From Candidatus Magasanikiibacteriota bacterium (lineage in GTDB: Bacteria; Patescibacteriota; Patescibacteriia; Magasanikbacterales; UBA922): a stretch of 48,512 bases of DNA. Below, in pieces: positions 19,601-19,949 of the stretch (positions are counted from its first letter, which is position 1; each line of letters begins with the position of its first letter). The stretch covers positions 20,341 to 68,852 of the forward strand of contig DALYDF010000001.1 in the NCBI GenBank assembly GCA_031973355.1, written 5' to 3'. Below the pieces are notes generated by a model, which was given only the letters and a program-made list of their open reading frames with translations, had not been told where the DNA came from and did no database searches. The position numbers were made by a program, and so were the translations under genes.

Positions 19601-19619
19601 ATTTATAAAGTGTAGTGAA

Positions 19620-19667
19620 CCGACGCGCCACATCCACCCCTTCGCTGGGGCGAACGCAGCGCGTCGG
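19620..19667 (-). terminator. GC-rich hairpin just after the 73-codon ORF (possible terminator)
   Basis: CCGACGCGC (19620-19628) pairs with GCGCGTCGG (19659-19667), a 9-bp stem starting 3 nt after the stop codon. The loop has an inner CCCC/GGGG stem. No clean U-tract follows. Confidence 0.4.
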
Positions 19668-19670
19668 AGT

Positions 19671-19892
19671 TCAGCACTCGACCGTGACCGTGCCGCGGCC
19701 ATCAGCGCCAATGTCGACGCTAGTGACCTTGGCCCGGATCATGTCAGGGCTTGACCATGACGCGAATCGCCCATCAACACCGACTTCCAGGTCCAGATTT
19801 GGACCCTGGCCGCCTTGACTGACAAGCAAAGCGTGTACACGATTACATCCGACGGGTCGAGACTGAACGACAACAAATGTGTGAGTCTGCAT
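19671..19892 (-). CDS. Hypothetical small protein (73 aa) encoded by the G+C-rich island
   Basis: ORF track: MQTHTFVVVQSRPVGCNRVH...GRGTVTVEC. A strong SD (GGGAGGAACG) lies directly before the ATG, and a hairpin follows the stop. I recognise no family. Overlapping plus-strand ORFs lack start signals. Confidence 0.55.
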   Translation of the reverse strand: MQTHTFVVVQSRPVGCNRVHALLVSQGGQGPNLDLEVGVDGRFASWSSPDMIRAKVTSVDIGADGRGTVTVEC

Positions 19893-19921
19893 CGTTCCTC
19901 CCGAGCATTAAGCTCGCGCTT

Positions 19922-19949
19922 ATTCTACACTTTTTTGATTTTTTTACAA
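19922..19949 (-). promoter_or_regulatory. Putative promoter for the 73-codon ORF
   Basis: Minus strand: TTGTAA (19949-19944), 16 nt, TAGAAT (19927-19922). The -10 element overlaps the right copy of the 9-bp inverted repeat. Confidence 0.45.

Follow-up and report, generated by a model that had tools for sequence, protein, structure and literature searches.

A probable strain-variable mini-gene cassette in the lysA leader of a Magasanikbacteria genome

Candidate phyla radiation bacteria, whose genomes are very small, are believed to exchange genes with their hosts and neighbours; to our knowledge, few such cases have been resolved to the base pair. A 48,512-nucleotide stretch from a Candidatus Magasanikiibacteriota bacterium (contig DALYDF010000001.1 of assembly GCA_031973355.1, positions 20,341 to 68,852; hereafter the window) raises the question of what a short G+C-rich segment with a 73-codon open reading frame (ORF) is doing between the genes for SMC and lysA, and where it came from. 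The segment is a small strain-variable gene cassette and not an artefact or a riboswitch. Specifically, we give a probability of roughly 0.7 to the reading that it is a strain-variable 296-bp mini-gene cassette in the 5' untranslated region (UTR) of lysA, with the promoter of that gene on one side and its start codon on the other. The exact empty site and the recurrent use of the slot are what make the locus unusual.

The window is a core-chromosome segment with 41% G+C from a candidate phyla radiation genome, and its closest lysA relatives are found in metagenome-assembled genomes of Magasanikbacteria. The gene order at the locus is relA, DHH phosphoesterase, SMC, spacer, lysA, rpsP, and KH protein, and the other genes scanned in the window are housekeeping genes (e.g., HisRS, ParAB, ScpAB, and KsgA). 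An earlier note on this DNA had described a jump in G+C within the SMC-lysA spacer; both the flanking genes and the jump are confirmed, with a 300-bp peak of 60.3% G+C at position 19620 against a window mean of 41.1% (standard deviation of 4.0% for 300-bp windows). This peak lies 4.8 standard deviations above the mean and is the second highest in the window. The island is present in four independent assemblies made from different samples with different assemblers: the Logan assembly of SRR4000971 (L001), which is identical to the window across both island borders; an ENA assembly (L143), in which the island is 93% identical; another NCBI assembly (L144); and the Logan assembly of SRR12900997 (L146), which carries a divergent allele.

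A query with lysA retrieves two siblings at 90% protein identity, among them an 11.3-kb sequence from SRR11476867 (L145). The synteny of L145 (relA-DHH-SMC...lysA-rpsP-KH) matches that of the window, yet exactly these 296 bp are missing. The filled site in the window reads TTGTAA-16-TAGAAT-AAGCGCGAGCTTAA-[296 bp]-ACTTTATAAAT-ATG, whereas the empty site in L145 reads TTGCAA-16-TAGAAT-AAGCGCGAGCTTAA-G-ACTTTGATTTTTT-ATG, where ATG is the lysA start codon. The empty junction consists of GCGAGCTTAA, a single G, and ACTTT; i.e., L145 has TAGAATAAGCGCGAGCTTAA-G-ACTTTGATTTTTTATG where the window holds the extra bases. The last 27 nucleotides of the left flank are identical in the two sequences, the lysA start matches at 38 of 41 nucleotides, and the two lysA genes share 90% protein identity and 84% nucleotide identity. 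The comparison of sibling spacers, which the earlier note had proposed, therefore supplies the limits of the island (Table 1); on the gene strand, the insert begins with TGCTCGGGAGG and finishes with GGTTCACTAC. The empty site also implies that the promoter at the island edge is the lysA promoter and that the island lies within the lysA 5' UTR. The lysA start is 11 nucleotides past the right junction, and its ATG is kept in L143, L145, and L146. The segment is thus precisely present or absent among sibling genomes.

The island contains the single minus-strand ORF noted earlier, which translates exactly as given. Other frames of the island contain ORFs as well (45-71 codons), and the length of the ORF alone is therefore no evidence of a gene. 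The substitutions in the ORF are those of a protein-coding sequence held under purifying selection. The window and L143 differ in it by 16 substitutions, of which 11 are synonymous and 5 are non-synonymous (2, 3, and 11 at the first, second, and third codon positions; dN/dS = 0.14; binomial p = 3e-4). There is no insertion or deletion in the ORF, and an 18-nucleotide deletion lies directly downstream, in the tip of a hairpin. In four of the five other frames, no more than 3 synonymous changes are counted; the antisense frame whose third positions coincide with those of the ORF reaches 8 of 14, but it is broken by stop codons. The length of 73 codons is kept in all three complete sequences of the window-type allele. 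The Shine-Dalgarno (SD) sequence and the ATG are likewise conserved. The L146 allele holds its reading frame up to the same stop, with 51% protein identity over the last 56 codons; at 55% nucleotide identity, it keeps the motifs LVSQ, LDL, VDG, SWSS, and GRGTV. These sequences show at least two deeply divergent alleles, which share the base of the 3' hairpin and the tail GGTTCACTAC.

The signals listed in the earlier note are in place around this ORF. The SD, described as near-perfect, is GGGAGG, and the predicted anti-SD duplex (the 16S 3' end lies outside the window) has -10.3 kcal/mol for the 73-codon ORF vs. a median of -1.5 kcal/mol for 25 genes, which agrees with the remark that neighbouring genes have no obvious SD. 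By this predicted pairing, the ORF has its own strong SD in a genome whose genes otherwise lack one. The host-type promoter pointed out at the island edge is the lysA promoter of the empty-site genome; it is kept as TTGCAA-16-TAGAAT in both L143 and L145, and the DNA further upstream diverges completely. The small hairpin in the leader is also present and spans the left junction, with its 5' arm in host DNA and its 3' arm in the insert.

Table 1. Coordinates of the insert, its signals, and the flanking genes in the window
Feature	Position	Strand	Basis or remark
Insert, 296 bp, 59.8% G+C	19612..19907	-	Empty site in L145 and composition
73-codon protein-coding gene, orphan, predicted all-beta	19671..19892	-	Substitution pattern; divergent L146 allele
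Sigma-70-like promoter TTGTAA-16-TAGAAT	19922..19949	-	Promoter scan; host DNA
5' leader hairpin CGAGC-UUAAU-GCUCG	19902..19916	-	Identical in L143
SD GGGAGG	19897..19902	-	4 nucleotides 5' of ATG; kept in L143
Inverted-repeat arm beside lysA	19607..19615	.	Gene strand CTACACTTT: CTAC is the last 4 nucleotides of the insert, ACTTT is host
Inverted-repeat arm in promoter spacer and -10 region	19925..19933	.	Gene strand AAAGTGTAG; host DNA
3' hairpin	19616..19673	-	Outer UGAA/UUCA helix, 2-nucleotide bulge, 21-bp stem; overlaps stop codon; no U-tract
SMC	20298-23375		Flank of island
lysA, diaminopimelate-decarboxylase type, pyridoxal phosphate-dependent	18383..19600	-	Pfam PF02784 and PF00278; no SD

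The encoded protein belongs to no family that could be assigned, as the earlier note had stated. It has no match in Pfam, NCBIfam, PHROGs, PADLOC, or the PDB sequences, and a word-indexed search of 5.8 billion proteins returns the 73-residue protein itself only. A full HMMER search of 1.8 billion representative proteins returns the protein itself and one repeat-inflated hit, the giant Ig-repeat protein P0002 (E = 7e-15), which was discounted because its score is a sum over about 20 near-identical Ig-like repeats of about 31 bits each. No signal peptide and no membrane segment are found in the protein. AlphaFold (AF2; single sequence, no alignment) predicts six beta strands with a predicted local distance difference test score (pLDDT) of 60, and a Foldseek search of the predicted model against the PDB gives nothing at E < 0.1. 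Lysine accounts for 1.4% of the residues vs. 5-9% in host proteins, and the content of FYMINK residues is low; with the G+C content and the anti-SD duplex, this amino acid make-up bears out the view that composition and SD are unlike those of the host. Only its position ties the protein to lysine chemistry.

The same position is occupied in more distant relatives (L002, L003, L005, and L006; lysA 54-62% identical). Each of them has G+C-rich DNA just 5' of lysA, with one ORF of 63-103 codons, GGAGG, and a hairpin. Smith-Waterman comparisons with shuffles give no homology among these small ORFs and the 73-codon ORF, and their aligned 3' spacers have no common motif; the small ORF of L006 is also an orphan. 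In L003 and L006, the G+C content at third codon positions (GC3) of the small ORF equals that of the adjoining G+C-rich, SD-led aspartokinase. Exceptional folding is restricted to the units of the window and L005 (z of about -6 to -8) and is not seen in the other units or the aspartokinases. Across these sequences, the lysA-leader locus behaves as a plastic slot for G+C-rich, SD-led cargo. In L145 (4622-5935), the SMC-lysA spacer has instead a 192-codon P-loop-like ORF and a PemK-family toxin gene, together with a consensus promoter, a small structured RNA, and a terminator (about 5828-5935). The cargo of the spacer thus differs from sibling to sibling, which makes the SMC-lysA spacer a plasticity zone.

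The aspartokinases between SMC and lysA (L003, 2119-3537; L004, 2388-3839; L006, 1820-3400) are SD-led, and their GC3 is 20-47 points above that of their neighbours. Their mutual identity is 27-43% vs. 59-69% for the adjacent lysA, which suggests repeated replacement or very fast evolution at the aspartokinase locus. A conserved short leader ORF precedes an intrinsic terminator in L003 (1927-2030), L004 (1900-2035), L005 (3495-3625), and L006 (1615-1730), 5' of the G+C-rich aspartokinase or, in L005, of the small ORF. It has the form M-N-...-K-K-T-K-K-I/V-S...G-stop, with 18-27 codons and 3-5 Lys codons, and the 5' arm of the terminator can alternatively pair with GGG(U/A)U at the end of the leader ORF. 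No Rfam family matches this region; from its sequence, the leader ORF looks like a ribosome-mediated attenuator sensing lysine.

The G+C content at the three codon positions is 66/49/57 in the 73-codon ORF vs. 54/38/33 in lysA, and it remains 66-69/49-50/54-60 in three alleles whose synonymous sites are saturated. The GC3 shared despite saturation leaves two readings of the G+C richness: selection maintains it in place, or each allele was imported from a G+C-rich pool; a single old, un-ameliorated transfer is excluded, and a simple recent transfer does not account for it either. The lysA genes of the window, L145, and L146 are about equidistant (82.5-84% nucleotide identity, dS of 0.8-1.07, and dN of 0.06), and the insert appears not to follow lysA in its divergence. 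The window and L143 differ at 16 of 222 nucleotides in the ORF vs. 20 of 125 in lysA (p = 0.016; the flank is only 125 nucleotides), whereas the window and L146 differ at 77 of 171 vs. 213 of 1218 (p = 2e-14; four taxa in all), with a dN of 0.52 for the ORF vs. 0.06 for lysA. This discordance would fit allele exchange by recombination, and fast protein evolution could explain part of it. We consider horizontal acquisition, or recombinational exchange within a G+C-rich gene pool, to be the most likely origin. The foreign cassette from a high-G+C donor proposed in the earlier note stands as a discrete cassette, given the empty site in L145; the donor part does not, no donor having been found. 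Comparisons of the island with more than 140 related loci and with the rest of the window by blastn, tblastx, and tblastn give nothing, and the island is therefore neither a remnant of the G+C-rich aspartokinase of the relatives nor a repeat.

It is possible, although we think it unlikely, that the ORF is instead a fast-evolving small gene native to the lysine locus and passed on vertically, ancestral to the siblings, lost from L145 by clean deletion, and kept G+C-rich by selection (e.g., for mRNA structure) with no horizontal transfer. Three of the four lineages, which are about equidistant, carry it, the identical GC3 of synonymously saturated alleles has the look of an equilibrium, and the substitutions that separate the window from L143 go about equally towards GC (8) and AT (7). 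In the more distant relatives, too, a small G+C-rich ORF lies 5' of lysA, by a G+C-rich aspartokinase under a conserved host-type leader; however, these ORFs lack detectable similarity to the 73-codon ORF or to each other. Other observations do not sit well with native descent: the divergence of the insert appears discordant with that of lysA in both directions, and its SD and composition are unlike those of every host gene but one other G+C-rich gene. Most of the G+C-rich neighbours in the relatives show no unusual structure (z from -0.8 to +0.8), and structure therefore cannot explain G+C richness generally.

Several points weigh against the cassette reading and should be set beside the evidence for it. 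With three of four lineages carrying the insert, and with the window, L145, and L146 about equidistant at lysA, a deletion in L145 is as parsimonious as insertions, and the equal GC3 of all alleles, whose synonymous sites are saturated, is as compatible with selection in place as with import. Searches of the 5.8 and 1.8 billion proteins, blastn against phages and plasmids, and a protein scan of viral contigs gave no donor homologue, and no recombinase, target duplication, or terminal repeat was found to explain movement of the segment. The coding test consists of 16 substitutions in one pair and a saturated comparison in the other, and the structure model of the protein is of low confidence (pLDDT 60). 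Finally, co-transcription with lysA and an insulating fold of the RNA, both discussed below, are features that we infer.

A more far-reaching reading, which we regard as improbable, is that Magasanikbacteria possess a class of G+C-rich mini-cassettes, each composed of an SD, an ORF, and a hairpin, which are swapped in and out of the lysA-leader slot. Their movement would be hairpin-dependent or otherwise of a kind not yet recognised, and would not require a recombinase nearby. The RNA would be doubly constrained, by a fast-evolving protein and by a fold that insulates the SD-less lysA start, and its G+C richness would be selected rather than donor-derived.

The structure of the RNA has to be considered on its own account. 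The 9-bp stem described earlier just after the stop codon does exist, but it forms only the base of a longer hairpin: 19620-19640 pairs with 19647-19667 over 21 bp, five of these pairs being G.U on the gene strand, and a 4-bp UGAA/UUCA helix outside this stem overlaps the stop codon. The base of the hairpin is kept in L143 and L146, and the tip varies (21 bp in the window, 11 bp in L143, and about 19 bp in L146). A terminator scan finds no intrinsic terminator at this hairpin, whose tail UUCACUACACUUUAU has no U-tract. The folding energy of the gene-strand RNA is -165 kcal/mol (z = -8.5), as opposed to -125 kcal/mol (z = -5.0) for the opposite strand, and the coding sequence alone has a fold z of -3.6. 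Eight of the nine changed core-domain pairs still pair, one of them via changes on both sides. The RNA structure is probably constrained as well, and the evidence is only suggestive given the few sequences.

These features could also be those of a structured non-coding RNA or a cis-regulatory lysA leader, e.g., a lysine-responsive element, in which the ORF would be incidental to high G+C. Such an RNA would account for the very stable, strand-specific fold, in which an asymmetry of 40 kcal/mol arises from G.U pairs, for the retained pairs, for a stem that persists while hairpin tips differ among alleles, for the position directly 5' of lysA with no U-tract, and for the ORFs in several frames of the island. 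We nevertheless consider it very improbable. The substitutions fall at third positions of the ORF's own frame, the only co-periodic frame being antisense and interrupted by stops, and the low dN/dS, the lack of insertions or deletions in the ORF, the conserved SD and start codon, and the protein motifs that L146 keeps at its low nucleotide identity are all properties of a coding sequence. Rfam models, including those of the lysine riboswitch, the T-box, and group I/II introns, give no match at gathering thresholds and noise only at E < 10. In addition, the sibling L145 runs lysA without the segment, which is therefore not a required regulator.

An integron-like cassette, i.e., an ORF followed by an attC-like imperfect hairpin and moved by a tyrosine recombinase at a GTT-type core site, has a comparably slim chance of being correct. 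The arrangement recalls one: a promoterless, SD-led ORF is followed by a hairpin with a conserved base and an allele-variable tip, an AAC...GTT pair flanks the stem, there is a 2-nucleotide bulge, the insertion is just downstream of a resident promoter, and relatives have different cassettes at the same slot. In detail, however, GCTGAAC matches RYYYAAC (R'') at 6 of 7 positions and GTTCACT matches GTTRRRY (R') at 5 of 7 (compared by eye and not with an attC model), the R helix is only 4 bp, and the 21-bp stem is perfect, without the usual extrahelical bases. The junctions compared with the empty site lack the expected G/TT exchange, there is one cassette and no array, and no integrase is found among the 12 scanned proteins of the 48.5-kb window, all of which are housekeeping proteins.

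The earlier note had also described the island as bracketed by a 9-bp inverted repeat, AAAGTGTAG at 19607-19615 and its reverse complement at 19925-19933. The repeat is present; the arms are not terminal repeats, since the left arm is host DNA and the right arm is half host. In the window, 3 copies of the 9-mer are present vs. 0.52 expected. Shuffling yields an inverted repeat of at least 9 bp between the two boundary windows 21 times in 5000, and real-sequence controls have one in 10 of 1279 cases (p of about 0.004-0.008). A miniature inverted-repeat transposable element, or an element derived from an insertion sequence, bounded by these 9-bp repeats would explain their rarer-than-chance occurrence (p of about 0.005) at the points where the composition switches. 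It is contradicted by the empty site and is highly improbable: the left arm is not part of the insert, since the empty site of L145 has it too, no direct repeat (target-site duplication) is found at the insert junctions, no terminal repeat is found inside the insert, no second copy of the island is found in the window, 146 related loci, or phage, plasmid, and viral collections, and no transposase is present. An assembly chimera or contaminant reads from a high-G+C organism, which the abrupt change in composition at both borders might suggest and against which the earlier note had proposed a check, are already refuted, because four independent assemblies carry the segment with the same junctions and differ from each other in a manner that fits real sequence divergence.

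The strain-variable cassette shares features with several known systems and is identical to none of those compared here. Strain-specific orphan genes and horizontal islets resemble it in their presence or absence among close relatives, atypical composition and translation signals, lack of homologues, and use of a resident promoter. The insert, on the other hand, is only 296 bp with a single gene inside the 5' UTR of a housekeeping biosynthetic gene, it has no mobility gene, tRNA target, or repeats, and its GC3 is constant across saturated alleles. Integron cassettes have in common with it a promoterless, SD-led ORF with a structured site (conserved base and variable tip), a fixed promoter upstream, and unrelated cargo per genome, whereas the insert fails in core-site consensus, extrahelical bases, and G/TT junctions and has no array and no integrase among the scanned window proteins. 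Similar to leader peptides, upstream ORFs, and dual-function mRNAs of amino acid biosynthesis, the ORF lies upstream of a lysine gene with which it is probably co-transcribed, and its RNA is predicted to be highly structured; a true Lys-codon leader peptide with a terminator exists at this locus in relatives. It differs in its 73 codons with one lysine, in an amino acid sequence under selection, in being dispensable in a sibling, and in having no terminator/antiterminator alternative. Finally, G+C-rich intergenic structured RNAs of A+T-rich genomes are comparable as strand-specifically folded, G+C-rich segments 5' of a metabolic gene, but the insert has a coding-type substitution pattern and no Rfam family.

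If the segment is a cassette of this kind, its expression may proceed as follows. Transcription would begin from the lysA promoter, about 7 nucleotides past TAGAAT, and the stem-loop spanning the junction would cap the 5' end of the mRNA. The SD would recruit ribosomes to the 73-codon ORF, which would yield a soluble all-beta protein. Since the long G+C-rich hairpin has no U-tract, we propose that RNA polymerase reads on into lysA, with both genes co-transcribed. lysA would then be translated from its A/U-rich, SD-less start, 68 nucleotides past the ORF stop; the stable, self-contained fold of the insert may pair the G+C-rich RNA with itself and so leave the lysA initiation region free.

Other elements are found in the SMC-lysA spacer of the window. 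A 74-nucleotide tRNA-like RNA gene lies just downstream of SMC (20118-20196, minus strand) and in the same place in L006 (1497-1573). It combines a 7-bp acceptor stem containing G3.U70 with A73 and an encoded CCA. The T-loop reads UUCGAUU, the D hairpin is 4 bp long with UGG as its loop, and the loop of the "anticodon" arm is UUACCA; the 5' part of the gene resembles the 5' end of transfer-messenger RNA (tmRNA) (UCGACAGGAUU). ARAGORN and the Rfam tRNA and tmRNA models make no call on it. The L006 homologue has 7 pairs changed on both sides, and a covariance model matches just the window and L006 among 21 loci, the gene being absent from L143 and L145. By its sequence, it could be a tmRNA relative consisting of the tRNA-like domain only or an unusual mimic of an alanine-type tRNA. 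A reading of the island as the mRNA-like domain missing from this nearby gene was rejected, as the two occur apart, the island alone in L143 and the gene alone in L006.

Just upstream of the lysA promoter (19958-20074, minus strand), a perfect consensus promoter, TTGACA-17-TATAAT, precedes a predicted RNA of about 80 nucleotides that ends in a strong intrinsic terminator (19963-19990). An AUG stands at the probable start of this RNA, whose first 23 nucleotides show 83% complementarity, with 12 contiguous pairs, to the D and anticodon arms of the tRNA-like RNA (20016-20038 vs. 20154-20176). L143 and L145 have other DNA in place of this entire block. A 64-codon ORF (19843-20037, minus strand) begins at the AUG of the small RNA, spans the terminator of that RNA as well as the lysA promoter, and stops within the 73-codon ORF, which it overlaps in a different frame. 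It encodes FFFKKIVKKSKK, in which a lysine-rich stretch recalls the leader peptides of the relatives; the ORF is probably spurious.

The highest G+C content in the window (62% over 300 bp) is found in a second island at 33265-34060 on the plus strand. Its ORF (33445-34032) encodes a 195-codon lipoprotein-like orphan with a GC3 of 70%, a strong SD (AAGGGGG), and a leader of about 170 nucleotides from a TTGACA promoter, and this ORF and the 73-codon ORF are the only SD-led genes in the window. Host genes of the window and of L002-L006 are essentially without SD, and many of them start a few bases past the -10 box; in L003 and L006, TATAAT lies 8-10 nucleotides before the lysA ATG, a spacing that suggests leaderless or near-leaderless mRNAs. 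According to a published survey, the anti-SD motif is absent in about half of Parcubacteria (PMC9297842).

With its exact empty site, its pair of deeply divergent alleles, and a promoter that the cargo borrows from the resident DNA, the locus would serve as a clean natural example of how an essential biosynthetic gene can take up one small gene in its leader without being silenced. It also points to two gene classes in one genome, A+T-rich genes without SD and G+C-rich, SD-led genes, and so raises the questions of how translation is initiated in a lineage with relatives that often have no anti-SD (PMC9297842) and why G+C richness persists here. If units of an ORF and a hairpin turn out to share a mechanism of movement, they would constitute a new cassette system; otherwise, the 73-codon gene would be one more orphan accessory gene.

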